From assembly GCA_965279035.1 (NCBI GenBank), contig OZ257142.1, positions 1,920,001 through 1,984,000 of the forward strand: a stretch of 64,000 nt of DNA. The letters run 5' to 3'. Made by a program: the position numbers and the translations under genes. Below are positions 39,059 through 56,027 of this stretch, piece by piece. Position 1 is the first letter of the stretch. The number at the start of each line of letters is the position of its first letter. The notes under the pieces were generated by a model. That model was given only the letters and a program-made list of their open reading frames with translations. It had not been told where the DNA came from and did no database searches. This stretch comes from Bacteroidia bacterium (GTDB taxonomy: Bacteria > Bacteroidota > Bacteroidia > M30B66).

Positions 39059-40030
39059 TTAGTCAAATGCCTGATTCTCGGCACCTGAAATTTCTATCAT
39101 GCGAGAATAGTCTTCTGCAGTCAAATCGTTGTAATAGAAATTCACCGGATTAATTGGTTGTCCGTTTTTATGCACTTCATAATGCAAGTGTGGACCAACA
39201 GATTTCCCCGTATTTCCCACAAATCCGATGATATCTCCACGATGTACTCGTTGGCCTGGACGGACATTGATTTTACTCATATGTCCGTACAAGGTTAAAT
39301 AGCCATAACCATGGTTTATCCGCACGTGATTTCCATATCCTGAAGCATCAGCATCCGCACGAACAACAACACCATCGCCCGTTGCATAAATTTCAGTTCC
39401 AACGGGACTGGCAAAATCCATCCCTGCATGAAACTTTGTGGTTTTATAAATTGGATCAGTTCGATAACCAAAACCAGAAGCCATGCGTTTTAAATCTTTA
39501 TTATTTACTGGCTGAATGGCAGGAATAGCAGATAACATCGCCGATTTACTTTTGATCATTTCAAAAATTTCATCATACGATTTACTTTGAACTACAAGCT
39601 GCTTGGATAATACATCGACCTTTTTCATTGTTTCAATAACCAAGTCGCTGTTCTCTAAACCTTTGTATTTCTCATAACGGTTTATCCCGCCAAAACCTGC
39701 TTTTCGAATTTCATCGGGAATGGGCTCTGCTTCAAAAACAACTCGGTAAATATTATCATCTCGATCTTGTAGATCACCTAAGACGATATTGATTTGACGT
39801 AATCGTTGATTCAATAAATCATATTCTAATCGTAACTGATCTACTTCACGTTCTAAGGCTTTTTCTCTAGGCGAATCAATCGTATTATACGCAATCACAA
39901 CACCCAAGGCTGCGAAAACAATCCCTGTTCCGGCAAAGGATAAAAAGCGTAAAAGCCGGTCTTTAACTCCCAGCTTCACTCGCTCATAAGAAAGCGATTT
40001 TGTATTAAATTGATATCTTACTTTCGCCAC
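39059..40030 (-). CDS. M23 family peptidase
   Basis: 'AIPAIQP', 'SGFGYRTDP', 'HAGMDF', 'GYGNHV', 'YGHMS', 'GPHLHYEV'; divergent from alaS. Confidence 0.93.
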   Translation of the reverse strand: MAKVRYQFNTKSLSYERVKLGVKDRLLRFLSFAGTGIVFAALGVVIAYNTIDSPREKALEREVDQLRLEYDLLNQRLRQINIVLGDLQDRDDNIYRVVFEAEPIPDEIRKAGFGGINRYEKYKGLENSDLVIETMKKVDVLSKQLVVQSKSYDEIFEMIKSKSAMLSAIPAIQPVNNKDLKRMASGFGYRTDPIYKTTKFHAGMDFASPVGTEIYATGDGVVVRADADASGYGNHVRINHGYGYLTLYGHMSKINVRPGQRVHRGDIIGFVGNTGKSVGPHLHYEVHKNGQPINPVNFYYNDLTAEDYSRMIEISGAENQAFD

Positions 40031-40231
40031 GTGCGTAATTACAATCGAATAAATTCCCGTTTCTGATTTGGTTGAAAAACCGGAAACACATTTTCATTTG
40101 GATTGCGAATTTAGGAATCCTTCGAACTCAAAGAACCAATTTCACCTTCAAATCGGTTCGAATAAAGTACATGCTGCCTGTTTTACTACCTTTGAGCCCG
40201 TTTCAGAAATCATAAATTTTCTTAATTCAGT

Positions 40232-42847
40232 ATGCAGTCCAAGCAAATCCGGCAAACATTCCTCGATTTTTTCGCTTCAAAAGGGCATCAAATCGTTCCT
40301 TCAGCTCCTATGGTCATTAAGAATGATCCAACGCTGATGTTCACTAATGCCGGAATGAATCAATTTAAAGATCTCTTTTTGGGGAATTCTCCTATCGTTT
40401 ATCCGCGCATTGCTGATACCCAAAAGTGTTTGCGTGTATCTGGAAAACACAACGATCTGGAAGAAGTTGGAGTGGATACCTATCACCATACCATGTTCGA
40501 AATGCTTGGCAATTGGTCGTTTGGTGATTATTTTAAGAAAGATGCCATTGCTTGGGCATGGGAACTCCTTACGGATGTTTATAAAATTGATAAATCTCGC
40601 TTGTATGTCACTGTTTTCGAAGGTGATACTTCTGAGAATTTAGCATTTGATCAAGAAGCTTACGACACTTGGAAAGAACTCATCGATCCATCCCGTATTA
40701 TCAACGGAAATAAGAAAGATAATTTCTGGGAAATGGGCGATACCGGACCATGCGGACCTTGTTCTGAAATCCATGTAGATATTCGAAGTGAAGAAGAACG
40801 AGTTCGTATTGATGGAAAAGAACTTGTGAATGCTAGTCATCCGCAAGTCATCGAAATTTGGAATAATGTCTTCATGGAATTCAACCGGAAGGCTGATGGT
40901 AGCTTAGAAAAATTGCCTGCTCAACACGTTGATACCGGAATGGGTTTCGAACGTTTATGTGTTGTACTTCAAGGAAAACAATCGAATTACGATACGGATG
41001 TTTTTCAGCCACTCATTTCTTTCCTTGAAAATCTCAGCGGAAAGACATACAAAAGCAACGAAAAGGACGATATCGCCATGCGCGTTATTGCCGATCACAT
41101 TCGTACAATTTCATTTGCAATAGCTGATGGACAGCTTCCAAGCAATAACAAAGCAGGTTATGTTATTCGTCGGATTTTACGCCGTGCTGTTCGTTATGGT
41201 TATACATTTCTTGGATTGAAAGAACCATTTATGTATACCATGGTCGATACGCTTGCAGATCAAATGGGCGTGCAGTTTCCTGAACTCAATGCGCAACGTG
41301 GTTTGATAAAGAATGTGATGCATGAAGAAGAGCAATCTTTTTTACGTACGCTTGAAACTGGTATCAATCGATTTAACGATTTTGTAGCAAAGAATACGAA
41401 TCATGATCAAGTTCCGGGTGATTTTGCATTTGAACTATTTGATACCTATGGTTTTCCAATCGACTTAACCGAATTGATGGCTCGTGAGCAGAATTTGGCT
41501 GTTGACATGATTAGTTTTAACGAGAATCTTCAAAAACAAAAAGCACGTTCTCGTTCTGCCGCAGTAGTTGAAGCAGGCGATTGGATTGTGCTTTCGGAAG
41601 ATGATGACGAGGAATTTATTGGCTATGATTATTTAGAAGCTCAAGTAAAGATTACACGCTATAGAGAAGTAACAGCAAAAGGTAAAAAGCAGTTTCAACT
41701 CATATTCAACATAACTCCTTTTTATGCAGAAAGTGGCGGTCAGGTTGGTGATTCAGGGATTTTAAAAGATGGAAACGAAATCATAAACATCTTCGATACC
41801 AAGCGTGAACATGGAGTAATTGTGCATTTTGCCGATCGACTTCCTTCGAATATTCAATCAACATTTAAGGCTGAAGTTCATCAAGGAAAGCGTGTTTCGA
41901 CGATGCGTAATCATACTGCAACTCACTTAATGCATGCTGCTTTAAGGAAAGTTTTGGGTACACATGTGGAGCAAAAAGGTTCTTTGGTGAATGATCAGCA
42001 TTTGCGTTTCGACTTTTCTCATTTTGCCAAACTCAGTCGCGAAGAAACACGCCAGATTGAAGCCCTTGTGAATGAACAAATACGCGCCAATATTATACGT
42101 GACATTCAAGTTTTGCCTATCGAAGAAGCCCGTAAAACGGGTGCAATGGCCCTTTTTGGTGAGAAGTATGGCGATCTAGTTCGTGTGGTCACATTTGACA
42201 AATCGTATTCAGTTGAGCTCTGTGGAGGCACACACGTTTCTGCAACAGGTCAAATTGGATATTTTAAGATTGTGTCGGAAAGTGCTGTGGCTGCTGGTGT
42301 TCGAAGAATTGAAGCCATTACAGGAGAAGCAGCTGATTTGCAGATTTTGGAGGATGCAAACTTGGTAGAACAAATCAAAGAAGTCCTCAAAGGAGCAAAG
42401 GATCCACTGAAAGGAATTCAGCAAATTCTGGATGAGAAGCAGGAATTGGAAAAGAAACTGGAGCAGTTACAAAGAGAGAAGGCGGGACAAATACGTAAAT
42501 CACTCGATTCGAAAATTGAGCAAGCAGGTTCCTTAAAACGCTTGGTAGATACGTTGGATCTAGATTCTCCAGAATTAATTAAGAATATCGCATTTGACCT
42601 TAAGTCGATACACCCTGATTTGATTTTAGTTCTTGGACATCAAAGCAACGGAAAGCCTATGCTGACTGTAGCATTGGGTGATCAAGCGGTTAATCAAGGC
42701 CTCAATGCGAGTAATTTAGTGAAAGACTTAGCAAAAGAGATCAATGGAGGTGGTGGTGGACAAGTCTTTTATGCAACAGCCGGAGGATCAAAACCAGAAG
42801 GATTAAAAGCTGCGTTGGATAAGGCAAAAGAGTTAAAGGGCGTTTGA
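40232..42847 (+). CDS. alaS: Alanine--tRNA ligase
   Basis: 'DPTLMFTNAGMNQFK', 'HHTMFEMLGNWSFGDYFK', 'DTGMGFER', editing motifs 'HTATH' and 'ELCGGTH', 'GGGGG'; -7 box TACCTTTG at 40187-40194. Confidence 0.98.
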   Translation: MQSKQIRQTFLDFFASKGHQIVPSAPMVIKNDPTLMFTNAGMNQFKDLFLGNSPIVYPRIADTQKCLRVSGKHNDLEEVGVDTYHHTMFEMLGNWSFGDYFKKDAIAWAWELLTDVYKIDKSRLYVTVFEGDTSENLAFDQEAYDTWKELIDPSRIINGNKKDNFWEMGDTGPCGPCSEIHVDIRSEEERVRIDGKELVNASHPQVIEIWNNVFMEFNRKADGSLEKLPAQHVDTGMGFERLCVVLQGKQSNYDTDVFQPLISFLENLSGKTYKSNEKDDIAMRVIADHIRTISFAIADGQLPSNNKAGYVIRRILRRAVRYGYTFLGLKEPFMYTMVDTLADQMGVQFPELNAQRGLIKNVMHEEEQSFLRTLETGINRFNDFVAKNTNHDQVPGDFAFELFDTYGFPIDLTELMAREQNLAVDMISFNENLQKQKARSRSAAVVEAGDWIVLSEDDDEEFIGYDYLEAQVKITRYREVTAKGKKQFQLIFNITPFYAESGGQVGDSGILKDGNEIINIFDTKREHGVIVHFADRLPSNIQSTFKAEVHQGKRVSTMRNHTATHLMHAALRKVLGTHVEQKGSLVNDQHLRFDFSHFAKLSREETRQIEALVNEQIRANIIRDIQVLPIEEARKTGAMALFGEKYGDLVRVVTFDKSYSVELCGGTHVSATGQIGYFKIVSESAVAAGVRRIEAITGEAADLQILEDANLVEQIKEVLKGAKDPLKGIQQILDEKQELEKKLEQLQREKAGQIRKSLDSKIEQAGSLKRLVDTLDLDSPELIKNIAFDLKSIHPDLILVLGHQSNGKPMLTVALGDQAVNQGLNASNLVKDLAKEINGGGGGQVFYATAGGSKPEGLKAALDKAKELKGV

Positions 42848-42883
42848 AACGAATTGGGAATTTAAACCAATTGGATTTACCTC

Positions 42884-43630
42884 TTAAAACTTAAAAGAGT
42901 CTTTCGGATATTCTACTTCAATTAGAAAAAGTCCTGCTGCAGGAACACTGGCTCCGGCATTGGTTCGTTTGCCCGATTTCATAACGCGTTGTAGATCATC
43001 GGCTGGGCGTTTGTGTAGACCAATTTCGAGCAAAGTACCAACGATTGCACGCACCATGTTCCATAAAAAACGGTCGGCACTGATGCGAAAAATGAGCAAT
43101 TCATCTTGCTCTACCCATTCGGCTCGTGTAATGGTGCAGATGGTCGTTTTATTTTTCGAATGTGCTTTTGTAAACGCTCCAAAATCGTGGGTTCCGAGCA
43201 ATTCGGCAGAAACATTTCGAAGTAAATCGAGGTCAAGTTGATCGTGCACGTAAAAACTTCTTCCTTTTAAGAAAGGATTGAGACTATGCGTAATTCGGTA
43301 TTCATAACTACGACTTAAGGCACTAAATCGAGCATGAAGTCGTTCATCTACTTTGGTGATTCCACGGAATTCAATTCCTGGAACTCTCAATTCAGCAAGG
43401 GCTTTCAATAAAGCTTCGGTATCGAGATCTTGGTCAATATCAAAATGTGCATAATATTCTTCCGCATGCACTCCGGCATCAGTTCTTCCACAACCAATTG
43501 TCTCGATAGTTTCTTCTAGAAGTTGAGATAATTTCTCATTTACTACTCCTTGAATTGAAACAGCATTTGTCTGAAACTGCCAGCCATGGTAATGTGTTCC
43601 TTTATATCGTAATCGGATGAAATAGCGCAT
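42884..43630 (-). CDS. truA: tRNA pseudouridine(38-40) synthase
   Basis: 'YKGTHYHGWQ', 'GCGRTDAGVHA', 'HARFSA', 'RFLWNMVRAIVG', 'GLFL'. Confidence 0.95.
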   Translation of the reverse strand: MRYFIRLRYKGTHYHGWQFQTNAVSIQGVVNEKLSQLLEETIETIGCGRTDAGVHAEEYYAHFDIDQDLDTEALLKALAELRVPGIEFRGITKVDERLHARFSALSRSYEYRITHSLNPFLKGRSFYVHDQLDLDLLRNVSAELLGTHDFGAFTKAHSKNKTTICTITRAEWVEQDELLIFRISADRFLWNMVRAIVGTLLEIGLHKRPADDLQRVMKSGKRTNAGASVPAAGLFLIEVEYPKDSFKF

Positions 43631-43648
43631 GTGTTTTACTGAATATCC

Positions 43649-44494
43649 TTAGTGTTTTCCAAATGCCCATTTCAAAAAATACGGCATTGCTTTTCCCCAA
43701 GTCGGGACATCATGGTGACCATTTTTAACTTCATGATACACAACATCATAATAAGGTTTGTATCCTTTTTTGATTAGTTCAATCATCAAATCCAAGGTAT
43801 CGTCAATGGCATCAATGATACCGTTGTTATTGCGATCAGCTTTTTCATCCAATGTTCCTGCTTGGAACCAGAATTTCATTCCGGGGATAAATTTTCCATG
43901 TCGGATTTCGGAATGTAGGATGCGGTCATTGTCGGTATATCCTTTTAAGAGATCACGCTTTCGCCACCAAAAAGCACCCGAAAACGCGCCACATTTTTGG
44001 AAAATTCCTGGATTATTCCATGCAATATCAACTGCCGATAATCCTCCTAAAGAATATCCAGCAATGACATTCGCAGTATCAAATCGACTTACCGCATAAC
44101 CTGATTCAAGCCAAGGAAATAGATGATCGGTAATAAAGGCTGTGTATTGTTTGGCTCTTGCACCTCTTTTTTTATAATCAGCTTTCGCTGCAACACCATA
44201 TTCTTGAATGCGTTCGCCACAGTAAATCCCTACCACCACAAAAGGAACACATACATTTTCTAACCACAATTTATTTAAAATATCCAGCAAGCCCATATTT
44301 TCGCTATCCTGTCCATCATTCAACATTAACACAGGTAATTTCTCATTCATGGAATGATAGCCTGGCGGAAGGAAAATATCCACTTTGACTTCTCTGTCCA
44401 ATTCGATTGAGTGAATGCCTTGAAAAGTTTCGAGTGTCCAGCTAGTTTCCGAATTCGTTAAGATCTCCTTCTTAAGTTTTGAATGCCCTTCCAT
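43649..44494 (-). CDS. Alpha/beta-hydrolase (Fes-like esterase family)
   Basis: 'LPPGY', 'LNDGQD', nucleophile elbow 'GYSLGG', 'FSGAFWW', 'DRNNNGIID', His in 'GHHDVPTW'. Confidence 0.88.
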   Translation of the reverse strand: MEGHSKLKKEILTNSETSWTLETFQGIHSIELDREVKVDIFLPPGYHSMNEKLPVLMLNDGQDSENMGLLDILNKLWLENVCVPFVVVGIYCGERIQEYGVAAKADYKKRGARAKQYTAFITDHLFPWLESGYAVSRFDTANVIAGYSLGGLSAVDIAWNNPGIFQKCGAFSGAFWWRKRDLLKGYTDNDRILHSEIRHGKFIPGMKFWFQAGTLDEKADRNNNGIIDAIDDTLDLMIELIKKGYKPYYDVVYHEVKNGHHDVPTWGKAMPYFLKWAFGKH

Positions 44495-44790
44495 AATGGC
44501 AAATCTGCTTTATTTCTGTTTGCAATCGTTCAGAAATGCAAATTTCTTTCAACAGGTATCTCCATATTATTGAAATTGATATCTTTGTGCCCGAAAAATG
44601 AATATCCGATAGTGAATGAGCTATATTTTTGTTTAGTTTGTTTTCTTTCGGATGCTTTGTTAAGAAAATGTTAAGTGGATGATGCGATTTATTTTCATAG
44701 GTTTTAATAAACGAAACGGAACAGAATCAATTCCTTCTTAACTTTCCAACTCAAACTAGCACTCACATCAAAAAACTAATACACATCAAC

Positions 44791-45858
44791 ATGAAAAAAA
44801 TCGGAATTCTTCACGGCATGGAAAGCTCTTTTCCAGATGCAATTATTGAAAAGATAAATTCTATGGGATTGAAAGATATTCAGGCAGAACGCGTTCTGAT
44901 TGATATTGTATCACAATCGGAGCCAACAGATTATGCTGTTATCATCGATCGAATTTCTCAAGATGTGCCATTTTATCGTGCTTACCTTAAAAATGCTGCT
45001 ATTTCTGGTACTGCTGTCATCAATAATCCATTTTGGTGGAGTGCTGATGAGAAATTTTTCAATAATGCATTAGCAGTGAAATTAGGAGTTCCGGTTCCTA
45101 AAACGGTTTTACTTCCTTCTTTCGAACGTCCGGCTGATACTTCTGAAGCTTCTTTCCGGAATTTACATTTCCCTTTAAGTTGGGATGCTATTTTCGATCA
45201 CATCAAATTTCCAGCGTACATGAAACCTCATGCTGGTGGTGGTTGGAAAAGTGTTTACAAAGTGAACAATGCTGAAGAGCTTTTTACAGCATACCACGAA
45301 ACCAATCAATTGGTTATGATGCTTCAAGAAGAAATTATTTTTGAAGAATACTATCGTTGCTATTGCATTGGAGGAAAACATGTTCGCATCATGCAATATG
45401 AACCACGCAATCCACATCATTTACGTTATGTTGTTGATAGCAAACCTTCTAGTGCTAAGCTTCTTAAAACAATCGAAGACTATGTTCTTAAATTGAATCA
45501 TGCCTTAGGTTATGATTTCAATACGGTTGAATTTGCTGTTCGCGATGGCATTCCTTACGCAATCGATTTTTGCAATCCAGCTCCAGATGCTGATGTAGCT
45601 AGTGTTGGCCAAGAAAACTTTGATTGGGTTGTTGAAACTGCTGCTAATTACGCCATTGAACGCGCTCGTGCACAAAAAGATGGTCAAGACAATTTGACTT
45701 GGGGTACTTACATTAGCAAAGCAGCTTTAAAATTAAATCCTGCTGGCGAGGCACCAAAAACAGCTTCTGCTCCTAAAGCAAAAGCCGTAAAAGCCACAGA
45801 AGAAAAAGCTCCAGCGAAGAAATCTCCTGCAAAAAAGGTAGCAACAGCGAAAGCATAA
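44791..45858 (+). CDS. RimK-like ATP-grasp amide ligase with Lys/Ala/Pro-rich tail
   Basis: 'VINNP...DEKF', 'GVPVPKT', 'FPAYMKPHAGGGWKSV', 'LQEEI', 'VEFAV', 'IDFCNPAPD'. Confidence 0.85.
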   Translation: MKKIGILHGMESSFPDAIIEKINSMGLKDIQAERVLIDIVSQSEPTDYAVIIDRISQDVPFYRAYLKNAAISGTAVINNPFWWSADEKFFNNALAVKLGVPVPKTVLLPSFERPADTSEASFRNLHFPLSWDAIFDHIKFPAYMKPHAGGGWKSVYKVNNAEELFTAYHETNQLVMMLQEEIIFEEYYRCYCIGGKHVRIMQYEPRNPHHLRYVVDSKPSSAKLLKTIEDYVLKLNHALGYDFNTVEFAVRDGIPYAIDFCNPAPDADVASVGQENFDWVVETAANYAIERARAQKDGQDNLTWGTYISKAALKLNPAGEAPKTASAPKAKAVKATEEKAPAKKSPAKKVATAKA

Positions 45859-45869
45859 TAACCTGTTTA

Positions 45870-45910
45870 AAAAACACCGGAACTTCATACACGTTGTTTC
45901 CGGTGTTTTT
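45870..45910 (+). terminator. Terminator-like hairpin inside the ligase cluster
   Basis: AAAAACACCGGAA...TTCCGGTGTTTTT. Confidence 0.65.
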
Positions 45911-45953
45911 CTATTTTGCAGCGTTACTTTACTAACCTGATAAAATACATTCT

Positions 45954-47057
45954 GTGTCAATTCCTGCATTTACTCTCGGTATAGAAGAAGAATACATGGT
46001 TGTTAATCCCGAAACGCGGGAATTATCATCGCATGATCAAAAAATTGTAGAGCAAGCCAGTCGTGTTCTTGATGATCAGGTGAAAGCTGAAATGCATCAA
46101 GCGGTTGTTGAAGTTGGAACTGGGATTTGCAAAGATGTTTTTGAAGCAAAGAAAGATCTCGCCAATTTGCGTAAAACTGTTTCTCAAGTTGCAATAGATA
46201 ATGGATTACGTATTGGTGCTGCCGGAACACATCCCTTTTCTCATTGGAGCACGCAACTCATCACTCCCAATCCACGATACGAAGACATTGTAAATGAATT
46301 GCAAGATGCTGCTCGTTCCAATTTGATCTTTGGATTGCATGTGCACGTTGGTATCGCTGATAAACAAATGGCGATGCATATTGCGAATTCGGTTCGTTAC
46401 TTTCTTCCTCACGTTTATGCCTTAAGTACAAATTCACCATTTTGGGAAGGACGCAATACCGGATTTAAAAGCTTTCGTTCCAAAGTATTCGATAAATTTC
46501 CCCGTACGGGAATTCCCGATTATTTCAATACCTACGAAGATTTTATTGGCTATGTAAATCTGTTAGTGAAAACAGGATGCATCGATAACGCAAAGAAAAT
46601 TTGGTGGGATTTACGTGTTCATCCATTCTTCCCAACCATCGAATTCCGGATTTGTGATATTCCGATGTTGATTGATGAAACAATTTGTATAGCAGCTATT
46701 TTTCAAGCCTTGGTTGCTAAATTATACAAGTTACGCACAAGCAATCTCAATTTCATGCTGTATACACGTGCTCTCATTAATGAAAATAAATGGCGTGCAG
46801 GACGGTATGGAATAGATGGGAAAATGATTGATTTCGGGAAAGAAGAAGAAGTGAAAACACGCTTACTAATACTCGAATTGCTCGATTTTATTGATGATGT
46901 GGTGGATGATTTAGGAAGTCGCGATGCCATCAATTATGTTCACACCATGATTGAACGGGGAACAGGTGCTGATCGTCAATTGCAGGTTTATGAAGAAACA
47001 GGCGATCTAGTTAAAGTGGTAGATTATATTCTTGAACAAACGTTAATAGGAACATAG
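45954..47057 (+). CDS. Carboxylate-amine ligase, YbdK / glutamate--cysteine ligase family 2
   Basis: 'TLGIEEEY', 'AAGTHPF', 'FGLHVHVG', 'NSPFWEG', 'WWDLRVHP', 'TIEFRICD', 'ENKWRAGRYG'; GTG start. Confidence 0.92.
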   Translation: MSIPAFTLGIEEEYMVVNPETRELSSHDQKIVEQASRVLDDQVKAEMHQAVVEVGTGICKDVFEAKKDLANLRKTVSQVAIDNGLRIGAAGTHPFSHWSTQLITPNPRYEDIVNELQDAARSNLIFGLHVHVGIADKQMAMHIANSVRYFLPHVYALSTNSPFWEGRNTGFKSFRSKVFDKFPRTGIPDYFNTYEDFIGYVNLLVKTGCIDNAKKIWWDLRVHPFFPTIEFRICDIPMLIDETICIAAIFQALVAKLYKLRTSNLNFMLYTRALINENKWRAGRYGIDGKMIDFGKEEEVKTRLLILELLDFIDDVVDDLGSRDAINYVHTMIERGTGADRQLQVYEETGDLVKVVDYILEQTLIGT

Positions 47058-47096
47058 TTCTTCTTTATACGTTATGATTCAATAAAAAAACAATAC

Positions 47097-47933
47097 ATGT
47101 TAGAGCACTCATTGCGCATTGCGATTTTAGACTTATATGATGGTGAAGCCAATCAAGGTATGCGCTGTATTCGTGAAATACTTCATGATTTTGGCGTTGA
47201 CAATGCCATCCATATAGAAGTTGATGAATTTGATGTTCGAGGGAAATCTGAAATTCCAGATTTAAGTTTTGATGCCTACATTTCTACCGGTGGACCTGGT
47301 AGCCCAACCGACAGCGAAGGTTCCGAATGGGAAAAAGTGTATTTCGGTTTTATGGATGAATTGAAACTGAATAATCGACATCAACCCGAGAATAAAAAGT
47401 TTGTCTTTTTGATTTGCCATTCCTTTCAGATATATAGTCGATACTATGGTTTGGGCAAAGTTTCTAAGCGATTGTCCACTTCGTTTGGTGTTATGCCTAT
47501 ACATATGACTGGAGCGGGCACGCGTGAACCTTATTTTAAAGGACTCATGGATCCATTTTGGGCAGTTGATTCTCGCGATTGGCAGGTCACTGAACCCGAT
47601 ATGAAGAAAATTCATGCAGCTGGTGGTGATGTATTAAGTATTGAAAAATACCGACCACATGTTAAATTGGAACGTTGTGTTATGGCGATGCGTTTTGATG
47701 ATGCTATTTTTGGAACACAGTTTCATCCGGAAGCTGATTCACGAGGTATGTTAATTCATATGCTTACTGAAGAGAAGAAGAAAAACGTAATCGATCATCA
47801 TGGAGAAGAAAAATACCATAGCATGATTGAGCATTTGAATGATCCTGATAAAATCGTTTTTACACACGATACTATTTTACCTAATTTCCTTCAGCACGCC
47901 GTTTCGGCCGGCAAAGATTTGATACTTAAATAA
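47097..47933 (+). CDS. Class I glutamine amidotransferase-like protein
   Basis: Oxyanion 'STGGPGSP', nucleophile 'ICHSFQ', His-Glu 'TQFHPE': complete triad. Confidence 0.88.
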   Translation: MLEHSLRIAILDLYDGEANQGMRCIREILHDFGVDNAIHIEVDEFDVRGKSEIPDLSFDAYISTGGPGSPTDSEGSEWEKVYFGFMDELKLNNRHQPENKKFVFLICHSFQIYSRYYGLGKVSKRLSTSFGVMPIHMTGAGTREPYFKGLMDPFWAVDSRDWQVTEPDMKKIHAAGGDVLSIEKYRPHVKLERCVMAMRFDDAIFGTQFHPEADSRGMLIHMLTEEKKKNVIDHHGEEKYHSMIEHLNDPDKIVFTHDTILPNFLQHAVSAGKDLILK

Positions 47934-47935
47934 TC

Positions 47936-49135
47936 ATGATAAAAGCAATTCGAGAACGCTATAACCAAGAATTTACTGAGGAAAAATATCAAGCTTTTTT
48001 GGATGATGTAAATTCTCAATTCAATTATAAAGTTCATTTCAGAGTTGCTGAATCGCCAGTTTTCTTTCCAAAATCATTCAAGAATAAATTGATTGAAGCA
48101 GGAGAGAGTATCATTAAAACGTTATTGCGCGACGATTATAAGGAACTCACTCGTGCCGCTGTTCCCGAAGGTTTATTTGTGCCAAATGAAGACGAGCATT
48201 CCAATTTTTTAGCACTCGATTTTGCTGTTTGTTTGGATCAAGAGGGAGAATTAATTCCACAATTAATCGAATTACAAGGATTTCCTTCTTTATTCGCATT
48301 TCAGGATTTTATACAAGCTATGTATAAGAAACATTTTTATGTGCCTGAAAACTTCAGTGCTTTCTTCAGTGATCTCGATTCTTCGCATTATGTTGAACGG
48401 CTCAAGGCATTACTATTAAATGGACATCAACCTGAAAATGTTATTCTTTTAGAAATAGAGCCATATAAGCAAAGTACATCCATCGATTTTATTGTTACTC
48501 AAGAACGAACAGGAATTCGTCCCGTTTGCATCACCGAAATAATACGTGAAGGCAAGGATTTGTTTTATCTACGTGATGGAATTAAAACACCGATTCATCG
48601 AATTTATAACCGAGTGATTTTTGATGAATTCAGCCGACGTGATGATTTAAAATGTCAGTTTAATTTAACTGAGGATGTGAATGTAGAATGGGCTGGACAT
48701 CCCAATTGGTTCTTTCGTGTAAGTAAATACGTGATGCCATTTTTATCGAGCCCCTATGTTCCCGAATGTCGTTTTCTGCATGAGATAACAGAGATTCCAA
48801 GCGATCTCGAAAATTATGTTTTAAAACCACTTTTCTCATTTTCGGGGACAGGAGTGAAGTTTCATGTAGCGAAAGAAGACATTGATTCTATTCCAATGGA
48901 AGAACGATCGGGGTTTTTATTGCAACGAAAAGTGAAGTACGAACCAGTGTTGCAAGCTCCTGATGGATTGGTTAAAGTTGAAGTTCGCTTACTCTATTTC
49001 TGGGAAAATAAAAACGCGCTACCTCAATTGGTTGTTAATCTTTCGCGTTTGAGTAGAGGCGAAATGATTGGAGTGAAATTCAATAAAGATAAAACTTGGG
49101 TAGGAGGGAACGTGTGTTTCTTTGAGCAGGATTAG
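47936..49135 (+). CDS. Circularly permuted ATP-grasp-like ligase (glutathionylspermidine synthase-like)
   Basis: Early 'ALDF' and 'LIELQGFPS', then 'IYNR', 'HPNW...SK', 'YVLKPLFSFSGTGV', 'LLQRKV', 'EVRL': permuted motif order. Confidence 0.7.
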   Translation: MIKAIRERYNQEFTEEKYQAFLDDVNSQFNYKVHFRVAESPVFFPKSFKNKLIEAGESIIKTLLRDDYKELTRAAVPEGLFVPNEDEHSNFLALDFAVCLDQEGELIPQLIELQGFPSLFAFQDFIQAMYKKHFYVPENFSAFFSDLDSSHYVERLKALLLNGHQPENVILLEIEPYKQSTSIDFIVTQERTGIRPVCITEIIREGKDLFYLRDGIKTPIHRIYNRVIFDEFSRRDDLKCQFNLTEDVNVEWAGHPNWFFRVSKYVMPFLSSPYVPECRFLHEITEIPSDLENYVLKPLFSFSGTGVKFHVAKEDIDSIPMEERSGFLLQRKVKYEPVLQAPDGLVKVEVRLLYFWENKNALPQLVVNLSRLSRGEMIGVKFNKDKTWVGGNVCFFEQD

Positions 49136-49233
49136 AACGAAATTCTCATCTTAATTCTCGAACAATACAAGCATTTTTTTGCTAAGAATTCCTGTTGTAG
49201 TTTGCAGTCTTATTACTAAAACTGCACGCACGC

Positions 49234-51531
49234 ATGAAGACATTCAAAACAAAACGAATAACTATAAAACACATTCTGCTTTCTGCAATACTATTATTTT
49301 TTGCAGGAGTTTCATTTGGACAAACTGTTTTCTGGAGCGATAATTTTGATGCGCCATCAGGTGGTGCTGAAAATAATAACAATGGAGCAGGTTGGGTGCT
49401 TAATTCAGAAGGCAATAGTGGCAATCGCTGGTTTGTAAATGCACCAAGTGGAATTGGATGTTCAAGTAGTGGAAATGTTCTTCATATTTCTTGTTCTGCC
49501 GGACTTTGTGGATTCTTAGGTGGTCCTGATGAACCTATTTACAATGCAGCAAATTCAAATTTAAAAACAGCTGTATCTCCTACAATCAGTACATTAGGGC
49601 AGTCAAACATTACTTTAAGCTTTGATTTTATTTGCGAAGGGTATGCTGGAAGTGATTTTGGAACGTTGGCTTTGAGTAGCGATAATGGAACAAATTGGAC
49701 AGATCTTCCAGGTGTATATGTTGAAGTGAGTTCTTGCTCTACTAAAACAATCACATTACCAGCTCAATATCAAAACATCTCCACATTTAAAATGCGATTT
49801 AAATGGGTTGAAACAGATAATGGTGATGGAGTTGATCCTCCTTTTAGTGTGGATAATATCAAATTGACTGTTGCAACTTCCTCTTGTACACCACCAACCG
49901 TTAGTGCTGGATCGAATGTTTCAATTTGTCCTGGAGGATCAATTGCTATTGGCGGATCACCTACAGCAACTGGCGGTTCAGAAGCTGGAGCATTGGTTTA
50001 TTCATGGTCACCTGCAACAAATTTAAGCAGCGCATCTGTTGCAAATCCAACAGCCAATCCATCTGTAACCACACCTTATACTGTAACAGTTTACCGTAAT
50101 ACGCCATCTTGTTCAGCTACAGCAACAGTCACTGTCACAGTAAATACGCCTCAAACATTATCGGTTTCACCTTCGGGAAATCAAACCATTTGTCCAGGTG
50201 GAAATGTGAATTTATCTGCCGCTAACGGATTTACGAATTACGTTTGGACAACGCCATCAGGCACTCAAAATGGACAATCAATCACGGCTTCTGTTTTAGG
50301 TTCATATACAGTTTCTGCAAATGATGCGAATAATTGCTTGTCGACTGCTGCTCCTATTAACTTGACATCCGGTTCTTCACAATCCATCACAGTAACACCA
50401 TCTGGACCATTGAATTTCTGCCCTGGCGGCTCAGTTACACTCACTGCTGCTGCAGGTTTTACAACCTATACTTGGTCGAATGCACAAGTTGGACAAAGTA
50501 TAACTGTAACTGAAGCAGGAACATACTCTGTAATTGGATCTGGATCAGGATGCGGTGGACAATCAAGCGATATCATTGTTACGGTTAATCTACCTGCAGC
50601 ATTAGGTGTTACGGCTGATGGATCATTGGCACTTTGTCAAAATGGGGATGTTGTTTTAACAGCAGAATCTGGATTTACGAATTATGTATGGTCTAATACC
50701 CAAACAGGAGCTTCTGTTACAATTACTTCAGCAGGAAATTATACAGTTTCTGCTCAAGATGTGAATGGTTGTCAAGTACAATCATCGGTTCAAGCAGTTA
50801 CGAATGATCCACCATTTACAATCAATGTGACACCATCGGGCACTATTGGAATTTGTGTTGGTGATAACATAACACTTACAGCACAAAGTGGATATTCGAA
50901 TTATGTTTGGTCCAATACAACAACAGGAACAACCTTGAATGTTTCTTCTGCTGGTGCCTATTCTGTGAGTGCTCAAAATGCAAATGGTTGCTCTGGAACA
51001 TCCGATGCAATTTTTGTAAATTCTACTGTAGCTCCTGATGCTTCATTTACCTATTTACAAGTGGAAGATGTTTATACAGTAAACTTCAGCAGTACATTTA
51101 ATGCAGATACGTATTTGTGGAATTTTGGAAATAATCAAACAAGCACGGCATCTGATCCTTCTTTTACTTTCCCATTTGATAATACTTATCCCGTTACTTT
51201 AATTGCTACAAATGCTTGTGGATCGGATACGGTTACAGTAAATGTTGTTGTTATTAAAACTGGAATTGAGAGTTTGAAAACAGTAAATTCATTTTCTATC
51301 AGTCCTAATCCAGGAAAAGATTTTTTCAGAATAACAGGAAATTCTTCTAAGCCACAAGATTTAATCGTTCAGATTTATTCGTTGACAGGACAAATCATTC
51401 AACGCAAAGACATCTCCGTAAAAGGAATTTTTTCTGTTGATTTTTCAACCACTGAACTAGCTTCTGGCGTTTATATGATTCAAGTTTCTGATTCTATTTC
51501 TAAAATCTCTCAGAAATGGATTAAGAATTAA
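49234..51531 (+). CDS. T9SS-secreted protein: Cys-containing beta-sandwich N-domain, Ig-like repeats, PKD domain, CTD
   Basis: Signal peptide; repeated 'xCPGG...YxWS' units; PKD 'YLWNFGNNQTS...YPVTL'; CTD 'ISPNPG...SGVYMI...KWIK'. Confidence 0.85.
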   Translation: MKTFKTKRITIKHILLSAILLFFAGVSFGQTVFWSDNFDAPSGGAENNNNGAGWVLNSEGNSGNRWFVNAPSGIGCSSSGNVLHISCSAGLCGFLGGPDEPIYNAANSNLKTAVSPTISTLGQSNITLSFDFICEGYAGSDFGTLALSSDNGTNWTDLPGVYVEVSSCSTKTITLPAQYQNISTFKMRFKWVETDNGDGVDPPFSVDNIKLTVATSSCTPPTVSAGSNVSICPGGSIAIGGSPTATGGSEAGALVYSWSPATNLSSASVANPTANPSVTTPYTVTVYRNTPSCSATATVTVTVNTPQTLSVSPSGNQTICPGGNVNLSAANGFTNYVWTTPSGTQNGQSITASVLGSYTVSANDANNCLSTAAPINLTSGSSQSITVTPSGPLNFCPGGSVTLTAAAGFTTYTWSNAQVGQSITVTEAGTYSVIGSGSGCGGQSSDIIVTVNLPAALGVTADGSLALCQNGDVVLTAESGFTNYVWSNTQTGASVTITSAGNYTVSAQDVNGCQVQSSVQAVTNDPPFTINVTPSGTIGICVGDNITLTAQSGYSNYVWSNTTTGTTLNVSSAGAYSVSAQNANGCSGTSDAIFVNSTVAPDASFTYLQVEDVYTVNFSSTFNADTYLWNFGNNQTSTASDPSFTFPFDNTYPVTLIATNACGSDTVTVNVVVIKTGIESLKTVNSFSISPNPGKDFFRITGNSSKPQDLIVQIYSLTGQIIQRKDISVKGIFSVDFSTTELASGVYMIQVSDSISKISQKWIKN

Positions 51532-51589: not shown

Positions 51590-51680
51590 ATGAAGTTTCT
51601 ATCTTAAATCCATCTTATAACAAGTGTTTTTTTTAATAAAATCAATGCTTAGATTGCATAGGAACAAATGGGTTTTATTT

Positions 51681-54600
51681 ATGAAGACATTGCATTCGCT
51701 AAGGATTACAACATTCAAATTGCTTTTTGTATTCATTTTATTTCCACTGGTAAATGGATATAGTCAAACTGTTTTCTGGAGCGATAATTTTGATGCACCA
51801 TCGGGTGGTTTAGAAAATAACAATAACGGAGCCGGATGGGTGCTAAATTCAGAAGGAAATAATGGCAATCGTTGGTTTGTAAATGCACCTAATGGAATAG
51901 GATGTTCGAGTAGTGGAAATGTACTTCATATTTCCTGCTCAGGTGGTTTTTGTGGTTTTTTAGGTGGCCCAAATGAACCTATTTACAATGCAGCTGGTTC
52001 AAATTTGAAAACAGCAGTATCTCCTACTATTAGCACCATAGGTCAATCAAATATTACTTTAAGCTTTGATTTTATTTGCGAAGGCTATGCTGGAAGTGAT
52101 TTTGGAACTTTGGCATTGAGTAGCGATAATGGAGCAAACTGGACAGATCTTCCAGGTGTTTATGTTGAAGTGAGCTCTTGTTCTACTAAAACGATTACTG
52201 TTCCAGCTCAATATCAAAATATCTCCACGTTTAAAATGCGATTCAAATGGGTAGAATCAAGTTCTTTCGATGGAGTTGATCCTCCATTTAGTATTGATAA
52301 TATCAAATTAACCGTTGCAACTTCCTCTTGTACACCACCAACTGTTAGTGCTGGATCGGATGTTTCTATTTGCCCTGGTGGATCTATTGCTATTGGCGGA
52401 TCACCTACAGCAACGGGCGGTTCTGAATTAGGGGCACTCGTTTATTCTTGGTCGCCTACAACGAATTTAAGTAGCGCATCTGCTGCTAATCCAACTGCCA
52501 ATCCATCTGTAACAACACCTTATACTGTTACCGTTTACCGTAATACTCCTTCATGTTCTGCAACAGCAACAGTTACTGTCACTGTTAATACACCTCAAGT
52601 TTTAACCGTATCACCATCAGGAACGCAAACGATTTGTCCCGGAGGAAGTGTGAGTTTAGCTGCCGCCAACGGTTTTACGAATTATGTTTGGACTACACCA
52701 TCGGGCACACAAAACGGACAAGCAATTTCTGCAACAGCAGCAGGAAATTACACCGTCACAGCACATGATGCAAATACCTGTAATTCGACTTCAACGGCAG
52801 TTACCATAAGCATAGCAACACCACAAGTTTTAACGGTTTCACCTTCAGGAACGCAAACGATTTGTCCTGGCGGAAGTGTGAGTTTAGCCGCTGCCAACGG
52901 ATTTACAAATTACGTTTGGACAACTCCATCAGGCACTCAAAACGGACAAACCATTTCGGCAACAGTTGCAGGAAATTACACCGTCACTGCACACGATGCG
53001 AATAATTGTAATTCAACTTCATCGTCTGTCACAGTAAGCATTGCAACACCTCAAACATTATCGGTTTCACCATCGGGAACGCAAACCATTTGTCCGGGAG
53101 GAAGTGTGAATTTAGCTGCAGCCAATGGATTTACGAATTATGTGTGGACAACACCATCAGGCACACAAAACGGACAAACCATTTCGGCAACAGCAGCAGG
53201 AAATTACACCGTCACTGCACATGATGCAAATAACTGTAATTCGACTTCAACGGCAGTTACTGTGAGCATTGCAACACCTCAAGTTTTAACAGTTTCTCCT
53301 TCAGGAACACAAACAATTTGTCCCGGAGGAAGTGTGAGTTTAGCTGCCGTTAACGGATTTACAAATTACGTTTGGACAACGCCATCAGGCACACAAAACG
53401 GACAAACAATTTCAGCAACAGCAGCAGGAAATTACACTGTTACTGCGCATGATGCAAATAATTGTAATTCGACTTCAACGGCAGTCACGGTAAGCATTGC
53501 AACGCCACAAACTTTATCGGTTTCACCTTCGGGAACGCAGACCATTTGTCCGGGAGGAAGTGTGAATTTAGCCGCCGCCAACGGATTTACGAATTACGTT
53601 TGGATAACTCCATCAGGTACTCAAAACGGACAAACTATTTCGGCAACCACAGCAGGAAATTACACAGTCACTGCGCATGATGCAAATAATTGTAATTCGA
53701 CTTCAACAGCAGTTGTCGTAAGCATTGCAACACCTCAAACATTATCGGTTTCACCATCGGGAACGCAAACAATTTGTCCTGGCGGAAGTGTGAGTTTAGC
53801 TGCCGCCAACGGTTTTACGAATTATGTTTGGACAACTCCATCAGGTACTCAAAACGGACAAACAATTTCAGCAGCAGTTGCAGGAAATTACACCGTCACT
53901 GCACATGATGCGAATAACTGTAATTCGACTTCAGCGGCAGTCACAGTAAGCATTGCAACACCTGAAACATTATCGGTTTCACCATCCGGAACACAAACGA
54001 TTTGTCCGGGAGGAAGTGTGAGTTTATCGGCCGCTAATGGATTTACGAATTACGTTTGGACAACTCCATCAGGTACTCAAAACGGACAAACAATTTCAGC
54101 AGCAGTTGCAGGAAATTATACCGTCACTGCACATGATGCGAATAACTGTAATTCGACTTCAGCGGCAGTCACAGTAAGCATTGCAACACCTCAAGTTTTA
54201 ACAGTTTCTCCTTCAGGAACACAAACGATTTGTCCCGAATCTTCTATTACACTTTTTGCTGGAAATGGCTTTACAAATTACACCTGGACATCACCAGCCG
54301 GAATTCAAGTTGGACAATCAATAACAACCAGTTTAGAAGGAGATTATATCGTGAGTGCTATTGGGGCAAATTCATGTTTGTCGACCGCTGCAACAGTGAG
54401 CATAACATTTCTTCAACCACAATCCATCACGATTTCTCCTGCAAATGATTCAAGTATTTGCCCAGGATCAACCATTACATATGCAGCAACAAGTGGCTTG
54501 AGTAATTATAGTTGGAATACTCCAACAGGTACTATTTCAGGACAATCGATTACTGTTTCAGAAGCTGGAACTTATTCAGTTTCTGCCATTGGTTCGAATT

Positions 54601-56027
54601 CTTGCATAACGAATTCAAGTAATGTGAATTTATCAATTCAAATCCCTGAAATTCTAAGTATAACAAGTAGTGAAGGAACTACTTTATGTCCAGGAGCAAG
54701 TATTGATTTAACCGCATTGGATGGATTTATTAATTATCAATGGTTAACTCCATCGGGTGCTAGTTCTGGTCAATCAATTTCAGCAAATCAAATTGGGAAT
54801 TATTCTGTTTCTGCAACAGATCTGCATGGATGTCATTCCATTTCAGAACAAACAACTATTATTCAAGGAATTATAGAAACTATTTCGGTAAACCCAATTG
54901 GTCCATTGAATGTATGTGCAGGAGGTTCAGTTGAATTGATTGCAGCAGATGGCTTTACTACGTATACTTGGTCGAACAGTGAAGTAGGACAAAATTTAAT
55001 AGTAACTGAACCGGGAATTTATTTTGTCAATGGAAGCGGTTTGGGTTGTGGTGGGCAATCGAATAATGTGATTGTAACTTTTGATGAGCCTAATTTGCTT
55101 GATGTAACAGCCGATGGACCATTGGTATTATGTCAAAATGATGATGTTGTTTTGACTGCAGCTTCTGGTTTTACAAATTATCATTGGTCGAATTCTATTT
55201 TAGGGATTTCACAAACATTTTCGCAAGCTGGAAATTTTCAAGTTTCAGCTACAGATGCGAATGGATGTCAATACACTTCTGCTAATCAAATAATAAGTAT
55301 AGATCCACCATTTACTATTTCGATTAATCCATCCGGGAACATTACATTGTGTGAGGGTGATGAAATTGATCTTCAAGCACAAACGGGTTTTTCGAATTAT
55401 GTTTGGTCTAACTCAAGTTCCGGAAATAGTTTGACAGTGAATGCAGAAGGCATGTATTCGGTGAGTGCTCAAAATGCGAATGGGTGTTATGGAACTTCAG
55501 ATGTTGTATCAGTTCAACTCGTTTCAGAACCCAATGCAGCCTTTACATTTCAGCAAATTGTTGATCAGTATTCTGTCAGTTTTACGAGCAGTACTATCGC
55601 TCAGAATTACTTATGGAATTTTGGAAATAATCAAACGAGCACAGAAGCAAATCCGGTTTTTACTTTTCCTTTTGATGGGAATTATCCTGTTACTCTTATT
55701 ACGACCAATGCATGTGGTTCTGATACATTAACTCAAAATGTTCCTGTAATTAAAACCGCAATAAATCCATTGAATTCAATCAATCAATTGGAAATCTCAC
55801 CTAATCCAGGAATAAATTATGTTAGAATAAAGGGGAATTCTTCTGTTAATCAGGAAATTGGAATTAAACTTTATTCTTCATCTGGAGAAATCGTTTATGA
55901 TCAATTAGCCTATGTTAAAAATGACTTTCAATTTGATATTCCAACTAACCATTTAATGAAAGGAATCTATTTAATTATAATAACAAATGGGCGAAATCAA
56001 GTGGCACGGAAATGGCTTAAAGACTGA
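51681..56027 (+). CDS. T9SS-secreted paralog of the 49234 gene with an expanded repeat stalk
   Basis: Near-identical N-domain, many 76-aa repeats, PKD and CTD. Start at ATG 51681 (ORF track 51624). Confidence 0.85.
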   Translation: MKTLHSLRITTFKLLFVFILFPLVNGYSQTVFWSDNFDAPSGGLENNNNGAGWVLNSEGNNGNRWFVNAPNGIGCSSSGNVLHISCSGGFCGFLGGPNEPIYNAAGSNLKTAVSPTISTIGQSNITLSFDFICEGYAGSDFGTLALSSDNGANWTDLPGVYVEVSSCSTKTITVPAQYQNISTFKMRFKWVESSSFDGVDPPFSIDNIKLTVATSSCTPPTVSAGSDVSICPGGSIAIGGSPTATGGSELGALVYSWSPTTNLSSASAANPTANPSVTTPYTVTVYRNTPSCSATATVTVTVNTPQVLTVSPSGTQTICPGGSVSLAAANGFTNYVWTTPSGTQNGQAISATAAGNYTVTAHDANTCNSTSTAVTISIATPQVLTVSPSGTQTICPGGSVSLAAANGFTNYVWTTPSGTQNGQTISATVAGNYTVTAHDANNCNSTSSSVTVSIATPQTLSVSPSGTQTICPGGSVNLAAANGFTNYVWTTPSGTQNGQTISATAAGNYTVTAHDANNCNSTSTAVTVSIATPQVLTVSPSGTQTICPGGSVSLAAVNGFTNYVWTTPSGTQNGQTISATAAGNYTVTAHDANNCNSTSTAVTVSIATPQTLSVSPSGTQTICPGGSVNLAAANGFTNYVWITPSGTQNGQTISATTAGNYTVTAHDANNCNSTSTAVVVSIATPQTLSVSPSGTQTICPGGSVSLAAANGFTNYVWTTPSGTQNGQTISAAVAGNYTVTAHDANNCNSTSAAVTVSIATPETLSVSPSGTQTICPGGSVSLSAANGFTNYVWTTPSGTQNGQTISAAVAGNYTVTAHDANNCNSTSAAVTVSIATPQVLTVSPSGTQTICPESSITLFAGNGFTNYTWTSPAGIQVGQSITTSLEGDYIVSAIGANSCLSTAATVSITFLQPQSITISPANDSSICPGSTITYAATSGLSNYSWNTPTGTISGQSITVSEAGTYSVSAIGSNSCITNSSNVNLSIQIPEILSITSSEGTTLCPGASIDLTALDGFINYQWLTPSGASSGQSISANQIGNYSVSATDLHGCHSISEQTTIIQGIIETISVNPIGPLNVCAGGSVELIAADGFTTYTWSNSEVGQNLIVTEPGIYFVNGSGLGCGGQSNNVIVTFDEPNLLDVTADGPLVLCQNDDVVLTAASGFTNYHWSNSILGISQTFSQAGNFQVSATDANGCQYTSANQIISIDPPFTISINPSGNITLCEGDEIDLQAQTGFSNYVWSNSSSGNSLTVNAEGMYSVSAQNANGCYGTSDVVSVQLVSEPNAAFTFQQIVDQYSVSFTSSTIAQNYLWNFGNNQTSTEANPVFTFPFDGNYPVTLITTNACGSDTLTQNVPVIKTAINPLNSINQLEISPNPGINYVRIKGNSSVNQEIGIKLYSSSGEIVYDQLAYVKNDFQFDIPTNHLMKGIYLIIITNGRNQVARKWLKD
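52590..54185 (+). repeat. Seven near-identical 228-bp (76-aa) intragenic tandem repeats
   Basis: Unit TPQ(V/T)L(T/S)VSPSGTQTICPGGSV...HDANNCNSTS.AVTVSIA starts at 52590, 52818 and so on; a diverging eighth copy starts at 54186. Confidence 0.95.

Follow-up and report, generated by a model that had tools for sequence, protein, structure and literature searches.

The subject of this study is a cluster of five genes at positions 43649 to 49135 of a 64,000-nucleotide stretch of DNA (hereafter the window; positions 1,920,001 to 1,984,000 of contig OZ257142.1, forward strand) from a Bacteroidia bacterium. We find that the cluster is a further copy of a widely conserved multi-amidoligase operon, experimentally uncharacterised, in which genes for three ATP-dependent ligases are accompanied by genes for hydrolases. 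The gene set recurs across Bacteroidota and Acidobacteriota, where, by analogy with known ligases, a small peptide-like compound is probably built and trimmed. The five genes, and the region that separates the divergent pair, are arranged as follows.

43649-44494, minus strand: est, a predicted serine esterase of the PF00756 family (Pfam match), divergent from the operon
44495-44790, no strand: divergent intergenic region of 296 bp, presumed promoter region of the operon
44791-45858, plus strand: grasp1, a predicted classical (non-permuted) ATP-grasp ligase of 355 aa (fold model)
45954-47057, plus strand: gcs2, a predicted carboxylate-amine ligase of the GCS2/YbdK family, 367 aa, GTG start (PF04107, NF010039)
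47097-47933, plus strand: gat, for a glutamine amidotransferase (GATase)-like protein of 278 aa with a divergent class I glutamine-amidotransferase fold and a Cys-His-Glu triad (PF00117)
47936-49135, plus strand: p5, for P5, a predicted circularly permuted ATP-grasp ligase of 399 aa from an unnamed family (fold model)

The gaps across the five genes measure 296 (divergent), 95, 39 and 2 bp. An earlier, sequence-only reading of the window had described these five open reading frames (ORFs), their gaps, the Cys-His-Glu triad and the GxSxG motif of the esterase, and all of these were reproduced from the ORF list and the alignments; its remark that none of the five proteins has a signal peptide agrees with the N-termini, as judged by eye only.

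Comparison with related loci shows that the four co-oriented genes form a genuine evolutionary unit. These loci were collected by way of P5, a scan of species-representative genomes matching at least 599 stretches, 595 of them confirmed relatives, of which the best 80 loci were kept (set 1). A second scan, made with G+C-rich P5 representatives (A3), gave at least 595 stretches with relatives, and 80 loci were again kept (set 2), mostly from Terriglobia, Thermoanaerobaculia and other Acidobacteriota, together with Ignavibacteria and some Bacteroidota. By tblastn, the 80 loci of set 1 contain p5 in 80 cases, gat in 69, grasp1 in 61, gcs2 in 60 and the esterase in 34, and those of set 2 contain p5 in 80, gcs2 in 65, grasp1 in 62, a gene termed X (described below) in 59 and gat in 8. 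The order grasp1-gcs2-gat-p5, which is also that of the window, is colinear on one strand and within 6 kb in 58 of the 80 set-1 loci, an arrangement far beyond chance. In set 2, 54 of 80 loci show the colinear order grasp1-gcs2-M29-p5, in which a metallopeptidase gene takes the place of gat, and 50 of these 54 also have X. Judged from these sequences, the usual operon consists of the esterase X, a classical ATP-grasp ligase, GCS2, a peptidase and the permuted ATP-grasp ligase.

The three ligases are also co-inherited, scattered genes included. An even sample of 401 genomes from G001's phylum (Bacteroidota) was searched; its members are related, so that a Fisher value for the counts is not a probability. 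P5 is present in 105 of them, grasp1 in 124 and a PRK13515-type GCS2 above cut-off in 111. All three ligases occur jointly in 97 of these genomes and none in 270, the remaining 34 having partial sets; when P5 is set against grasp1, 102 genomes have both, 3 have P5 only, 22 have grasp1 only and 274 have neither. In genomes such as G122, G162, G068, G164, G044 and G172 the ligases co-occur though their genes lie far apart on a single contig, and where P5 stands alone (G099, G186 and G122) grasp1 and GCS2 are encoded elsewhere in the genome.

Variants of the unit differ in what surrounds it. In twelve Flavobacterium-type loci (L039, L040, L042, L049 and eight others) a convergent block lies downstream of p5, at ~8.2-12 kb, with genes for an ATP-grasp_4 ligase, an M17 aminopeptidase and a PF00756-like esterase, an SMR transporter gene coming first in four of them. 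One locus without GCS2 and P5 (L171:4659-9999, genome G018) carries on one strand grasp1, a 471-aa CP_ATPgrasp_2 ligase, gat, a PF00756 esterase and an ATP-grasp_4 ligase. The flanking ORF families within ~7 kb of the loci are heterogeneous housekeeping genes, with no glycogen-operon link seen among them, although no search aimed at glycogen genes was made. Among the clustered ORF families of 86 loci no conserved small ORF or target gene was found, ORFs of less than 80 aa lying outside that survey. Four loci carry labels from other groups, namely Limnohabitans (L054), Caldilineaceae (L045), Pseudanabaena (L059) and Heliobacteriaceae (L165); their p5 genes are Bacteroidota-like, at 46-52% identity, and the whole synteny of L054 is that of Algoriphagus-type loci. 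These four are probably mis-binned contigs of metagenome-assembled genomes.

Among the ligases, GCS2 scores above the cut-offs of PF04107 (212.4 bits versus 21) and of NF010039/PRK13515 (536.8 bits versus 371); two YbdK structures, 1r8g and 1tt4, match it with E values of 1e-51 to 1e-53. Its residues 9-13 read GIEEE, which fits the GhExE Mg/ATP-site signature of carboxylate-amine ligases given in passages of Iyer et al. (2008; PMC2588565). By family membership it is a predicted carboxylate-amine ligase, and the YbdK/GCS2 identity proposed earlier is upheld.

P5 is far harder to place by sequence. At E<=0.01 it has no match in Pfam or NCBIfam, PF03738, PF04174 and PF14403 included, and none among PDB sequences, and a profile search returned only YgiC, at E 0.16. 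The protein was modelled with AlphaFold from a 26-sequence alignment (A1), with a mean pLDDT of 90.5, and the model was compared with the PDB by Foldseek. Yeast and human glutathione synthetases match at E values ranging from 2e-14 (1m0w) to 2e-13, and further matches are homoglutathione synthetase, 3n6x, YgiC (7uk8)/YjfC, glutathionylspermidine synthetase (GspS), trypanothione synthetase and the fungal ligase Cp1B; 49 PDB chains match at E<=0.001, and those named, down to rank 46, are all permuted ATP-grasp relatives of this list. As modelled, P5 has a circularly permuted ATP-grasp fold, as the sequence-only reading had supposed, but by sequence it lies outside the named families. The alignments of both P5 and grasp1 show conserved Lys/Gly-rich and acidic motifs.

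The P5 family is large. A P5 profile found 1696 representatives of 50%-identity clusters at E<=1e-3 in 1.84 billion proteins. Where relatives in a collection of 5.8 billion proteins have a source name, it reads 'hypothetical protein' or, in a few rows, 'uncharacterized protein (UPF0248 family)', and none has a precomputed Pfam domain. The ESM Atlas gives only clusters called 'hypothetical protein' or 'ATP-grasp' for P5, one of them with PF03738 on 15% of its members, and has large clusters of P5 look-alikes in Acidobacteriota. One distant representative (P0267) matches PF04174 at E 1.9e-4, below the cut-off, and a locus search seeded with a single distant protein (P0194) returned one locus. 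In L081, L082 and P0125, a sodium:solute symporter (SSF) domain, PF00474, has P5 fused to its C-terminus; the two fusions with mapped loci are the following.

L081, 3890-6538: symporter-P5 fusion of 882 aa
L082, 3637-6240: symporter-P5 fusion of 867 aa

The symporter part of these fusions has only sub-threshold, PanF/PutP-like matches in NCBIfam, and the genomes of L081 and L082 encode grasp1 and GCS2 elsewhere. Because P5 is fused to SSF symporters, these sequences point to a small, imported P5 substrate. Other N-terminal extensions, those of P0126, P0150, P0156, P0186 and P0196, have no Pfam match. In four of these proteins, from G+C-rich organisms (P0150, P0156, P0186 and P0196), the extension comprises a signal-peptide-like segment and ~150 Ala-rich residues, which is odd for an ATP-dependent ligase.

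The first ligase, grasp1, has no Pfam match, PF08443 included, and nothing useful came from PDB sequence and profile searches. Its NCBIfam match to TIGR00768 (rimK_fam), at E 3.3e-10 and 39.8 bits, falls below the cut-off of 143.4 bits, and its match to LysX is also weak, so that the term 'RimK-type' of the sequence-only reading is loose. The model of grasp1 (pLDDT 80.7, with residues ~316-355 disordered and the tail below 50) matches Ddl, LysX/ArgX and the ATP-grasp ligases of ribosomally synthesized and post-translationally modified peptides (RiPPs), such as PsnB, about equally in Foldseek, at E ~1e-13. Its predicted fold is that of a classical ATP-grasp ligase, and its family placement between Ddl, LysX/ArgX and the RiPP ligases is left even.

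A recurrent feature of grasp1 is its C-terminus. The window protein ends in a basic, Lys/Ala/Pro-rich tail of ~40 residues, and basic tails (at least 12 aa, with a net charge of at least +4) are found on 28 of 61 orthologues in set 1 and on 41 of 60 in set 2, being absent from many others, for example those of Flavobacterium and Algoriphagus. In a genome of Saprospiraceae (G004), a grasp1 orthologue of 611 aa (L168:2733-4568, minus strand) has a normal ligase domain followed by ~300 aa of KVAGKRGPKPKA-like basic repeats; P5 is encoded elsewhere in that genome, in which GCS2 has no match. In L041 and L043, where gcs2 is absent, grasp1 carries a long C-terminal extension, which in L043 is acidic-plus-helical, helix-hairpin-helix (HhH)-like by eye and without a Pfam match. 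The orthologue of L041 (4772-6004) carries an internal stop codon. The composition of the basic tail suggests that it may bind a polyanion, be it the growing acidic peptide, nucleic acid or the ribosome, or else a membrane.

The GATase-like protein of the window, encoded between gcs2 and p5, scores 33 bits against PF00117 (cut-off 22.8), and all 24 of the 24 homologues aligned retain Cys107, His210 and Glu212, which fits the class I amidotransferase-like enzyme with intact triad described earlier. At E<=0.01 it has no match to PF07722 (Peptidase C26, the gamma-glutamyl hydrolase/PuuD type), and its closest solved relatives by sequence are the MetA acyltransferase and an uncharacterised protein. 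In set 1, gat is the commonest neighbour of p5 (69 of 80 loci); the junction of the two genes spans 2 bp in the window and is overlapping in relatives. In most set-2 loci (58 of 80), however, the slot between gcs2 and p5 is occupied by a 348-aa gene with a Peptidase_M29 domain, gat itself being found in only 8. In L083 and L084, an Amidohydro_3 gene overlaps a distant p5 (32-35% identical) by 4 bp, and in L086 both gat and an Amidohydro_3 gene precede p5. Three unrelated hydrolase folds (GATase-like, M29 and Amidohydro_3) share the position beside P5. The strongest available argument on the GATase-like protein is this replacement by unrelated hydrolase folds, since it makes a thiol peptidase or amidase more likely than an ammonia donor, and it lends support to the hydrolase role that the sequence-only reading had given the protein. 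Moreover, passages of Iyer et al. (2008; PMC2588565) describe genes for a thiol peptidase of glutamine amidotransferase-like kind that adjoin carboxylate-amine ligases. A complex prediction for P5 with the GATase-like protein (score 0.00, mark 0.32) is evidence neither way.

The second hydrolase turned out to differ from the one first proposed. The esterase of the window belongs to PF00756 (106.9 bits, E 1.9e-30 in Pfam) and has a GYSLG motif. Clustering of the ORFs of related loci revealed another conserved gene, X, of ~235 aa, immediately upstream of grasp1 on the same strand, whose family is PF00756/alpha-beta-hydrolase with a GCSFGG motif. Of the 58 colinear set-1 loci, 52 have X in this upstream, same-strand position; of the six without it, three end at a contig edge and three (L018, L025 and L034) have room for it. 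The window esterase aligns end to end with the X of L004 (24% identity, E 2e-7), GYSLGG being in register with GCSFGG and the C-terminal His also aligned. In the 64-kb window, tblastn at E<=1e-3 gave the divergent esterase as the sole match to X, at 24% identity, and no X remnant in the 296-bp intergenic region. These alignments indicate that the window esterase is a paralogue of X, the usual first gene of the operon, and that X itself has apparently been lost from the window's copy, where only the divergent paralogue remains. The loss of X is the local peculiarity of the window, which otherwise holds one more copy of the operon. When the co-occurrence of all five genes was surveyed, the four co-oriented genes held together, as described above (58 of 80 loci colinear), but the divergent esterase did not: its homologues lie inside 34 of the 80 set-1 loci, and those of at least 40% identity inside 25, close relatives only. 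The sequence-only reading had made this divergent esterase a hydrolase of the system, a place that the conserved X takes.

The most economical reading of these observations is a cytoplasmic pathway that builds and trims a small amide-linked product. In this pathway, to which we give a probability of roughly 0.55, three ligases together with hydrolases would make the product through three successive ATP-dependent ligations, the ligases acting in series on a small substrate in the cytoplasm. GCS2 would form a carboxylate-amine bond of the gamma-glutamyl type. The classical ATP-grasp ligase, grasp1, would add at least one further amino acid, perhaps an acidic one because the basic tail recurs. 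P5 would then condense the peptide carboxylate with an amino acid or amine, in the manner of glutathione synthetase and glutathionylspermidine synthetase. The Cys-His-Glu GATase-fold protein and the esterase or esterases would hydrolyse the product, an intermediate or side products, in turnover or proofreading. The direct basis of this scheme is gene order, conservation, co-inheritance, folds, catalytic residues and the replacement of one hydrolase by another, while we infer the order of the steps and the substrates by analogy with YbdK, RimK/LysX and glutathione synthetase (GS)/GspS. The product would be a small metabolite; the 'three-bond product' of the sequence-only reading, and the product classes that it listed (glutathione-analogue thiol, storage oligopeptide, compatible solute or protein tag), belong to the same conditional part. 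A small-molecule substrate is favoured because P5 is fused to a symporter and because all of its structural neighbours are small-molecule ligases. In addition, operons that join distinct ATP-grasp and COOH-NH2 ligases are seen repeatedly, usually for successive ligations, according to passages of Burroughs et al. (2015; PMC4431377).

Several observations weigh against such a pathway, or at least against a uniform one. Partial gene sets occur in 34 of the 401 genomes, 22 of which have grasp1 without P5, and in L171 a CP_ATPgrasp_2 ligase can replace P5; because of both, the pathway is modular rather than fixed. With X missing from the window and from three relatives that have room for it, the copy in the window may fall short of full equivalence with the standard operon. 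The same kind of bond would not be expected to be cut by a C26-like thiol enzyme, an M29 aminopeptidase and an Amidohydro_3 protein, and that they play the same role beside P5 is an assumption. Finally, the basic, AT-hook-like or HhH-like C-terminal extensions of grasp1 fit a macromolecular target, such as the ribosome, the nucleoid or a protein, at least equally well.

Because these tails are recurrently basic, a protein-modification reading is kept alive. A protein or ribosomal component would here be tagged, grasp1 (compare RimK and TTLs) and GCS2 (compare PafA) adding residues or a short peptide to a side chain or C-terminus, which P5 would cap and the peptidases remove. Extensions of the nucleic-acid- or polyanion-binding type do recur on grasp1 (the basic tails on 28 of 61 and 41 of 60 orthologues, and those of L168 and L043), passages of PMC2588565 give GCS2 as the Pup ligase's nearest relative, and the pairing of ligase and peptidase is typical of tagging systems. 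Nonetheless, we regard tagging as unlikely, given that the 86 loci yielded no conserved small ORF or target gene (at the 80-aa limit stated above), that P5 is fused to a solute transporter, that all structural neighbours of P5 act on small molecules, and that the tails are missing from many orthologues, those of Flavobacterium and Algoriphagus among them. Another view centres on the GATase-like protein, which as a true glutamine amidotransferase would feed ammonia to P5 (or GCS2), so that a carboxylate is amidated as in MurT/GatD and carbamoyl-phosphate synthetase, the product being a peptide amide like the osmolyte N-acetylglutaminylglutamine amide (NAGGN). The invariant Cys-His-Glu triad, the 2-bp gat-p5 junction that becomes an overlap in relatives, the rank of gat as the commonest p5 neighbour (69 of 80) and a Pfam match to GATase rather than Peptidase_C26 would all suit an ammonia donor; but an M29 metallopeptidase takes this slot in 58 of 80 set-2 loci, as does Amidohydro_3 elsewhere, neither of which can yield ammonia from glutamine, and the nearest solved sequence relatives are the MetA acyltransferase and an uncharacterised protein. 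We consider true amidotransfer improbable.

The GATase fold is also that of gamma-glutamyl hydrolases such as PuuD, and it could be supposed that an imported amine or amino acid is trapped or catabolised through gamma-glutamylation, in the manner of the Puu, Ipu and GmaS routes, the GATase-like protein, like PuuD, later releasing the solute. Such a role would account for the SSF symporter-P5 fusions and for the hydrolases that always accompany the ligases, as well as for the fold itself. It receives little credence here, because the unit includes no conserved gene for an oxidase, dehydrogenase or aminotransferase and its flanks are heterogeneous, and because three different ligases exceed the need of these pathways. 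Still less probable is plain glutathione or glutathionylspermidine made by a non-canonical route, even though the best structural matches of P5 are glutathione synthetases and GspS, and a search of 5 genomes found no GshA of the PF04262 type. Lehmann is said to have described in 2004 a YbdK-type GCS2 with weak gamma-Glu-Cys ligase activity, which would also favour this route. Against it stands genome G002 (Algoriphagus, locus L051), which carries the operon and, ~45 kb away, a canonical gshB (406 bits; cut-off 299), accompanied at a distance of 1.4 kb by a second GCS2 gene. Ordinary glutathione is an unlikely product of the operon because a genome that has the operon has this gene as well; moreover, the third ligase and at least two hydrolases would be left unexplained, and P5 matches none of PF03738, PF04174 and PF14403.

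Returning to the cytoplasmic build-and-trim pathway, we may speculate further, and only tentatively, on what it makes. The product could be an abundant cytoplasmic oligopeptide or peptide-amine conjugate (about a quarter of the sampled Bacteroidota and many acidobacterial loci would have it), a counterpart of glutathione or glutathionylspermidine that is possibly polyanionic; or else the basic-tailed ATP-grasp ligase might attach the product to a component of the ribosome or nucleoid. P5 would in either case be a new permuted ATP-grasp family that can be coupled to solute uptake by way of the symporter fusions.

No terminator-like site is present on the plus strand between 43500 and 49400, which is weak evidence that the four co-oriented genes are one transcription unit. 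An Rfam scan of 43000-50000 at E<=1 gave zero matches, the intergenic region included, and a scan for sigma-70 promoters gave 18 sites against a shuffle mean of 18.7, the promoter model being unsuited to Bacteroidota. Among the listed sequencing runs, four from one sample contain the stretch and one freshwater metagenome run contains a small share of it, and no RNA run is among them. Upstream, the region 39059-43630 holds ordinary housekeeping genes, assigned by eye from their translations as follows.

within 39059-43630, minus strand: M23-type peptidase
40232-42847, plus strand: alanyl-tRNA synthetase
42884-43630, minus strand: TruA-like pseudouridine synthase

Downstream of the operon lie two neighbouring large paralogues, 49234-51531 (765 aa) and 51624-56027 (1467 aa), whose N-terminal regions are near-identical and whose C-terminal ends resemble, by eye, the sorting tails of the type IX secretion system. 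The 1467-aa paralogue contains a 228-bp tandem repeat (52590-54235; 7.2 copies, 87% match) that encodes repeated domains of ~76 aa.

The distribution of the operon gives these questions some weight. Of the 401 sampled Bacteroidota genomes, 97 have all three ligases, and each scan returned relatives of P5 in at least 595 species-representative stretches. Should the operon yield a small peptide, thiol, osmolyte or protein tag that is both new and major, a gap would be closed in what is understood of the physiology of two phyla dominant in soils and fresh waters, and a large unnamed family of permuted ATP-grasp ligases (P5) would gain a function.

Amidoligase neighbourhoods were reportedly predicted by computation in 2009 by Iyer, Abhiman, Burroughs and Aravind. 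Full-text literature searches, whose coverage excluded that 2009 survey, found no experimental characterisation of the present gene combination, in line with the sequence-only reading, which knew of no characterised product for it. A partial parallel is the NAGGN cassette, in which a RimK-like ATP-grasp ligase, an amidotransferase-fold enzyme and a peptidase in one operon give a small dipeptide-derived solute. That cassette (asnO-ngg plus a peptidase) differs in its class II (N-terminal nucleophile) AsnO and in the GNAT domain of Ngg, both absent here, whereas the present operon has three ligases. With RimK and LysX-ArgX, grasp1 shares the classical ATP-grasp fold, weak sequence matches to rimK_fam and LysX, and structural matches to LysX/ArgX; unlike them, it falls below the family cut-offs, lacks PF08443 and is matched equally by Ddl and RiPP ligases, and no S6 or LysW-like partner gene was seen near the operon. 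Passages of a 2026 paper describe RimK-like ligases and one YbdK-like ligase that make gamma-Glu-2-thiohistidine beside sulfoxide synthases, which are absent from this operon.

The closest likenesses are of two kinds. In the synthesis of glutathione, glutathionylspermidine and trypanothione, as here, a carboxylate-amine ligase of GS-like fold is combined with permuted ATP-grasp (Foldseek E 2e-14 to 1e-7), and GspS also has a hydrolase, which is fused to it as an amidase, whereas here a hydrolase gene lies beside the synthetase. The hydrolase of GspS is a CHAP domain, that of the present operon being GATase-like, M29 or Amidohydro_3. Moreover, P5 lies outside the Pfam models of the glutathione and GspS systems (GCS, eukaryotic GS, YgiC and YjfC), with only a YgiC profile match at E 0.16; a classical ATP-grasp enzyme is present as third ligase; and, unlike the glutathione route, the operon coexists with canonical gshB in G002. 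The predicted amidoligase neighbourhoods, in the passages concerned of PMC2588565 and PMC4431377, are built from other ligase families, but they resemble the present operon in that distinct ATP-grasp and COOH-NH2 (GCS2-like) ligases are joined there with thiol peptidases, and glutathione-like peptides are the products predicted.

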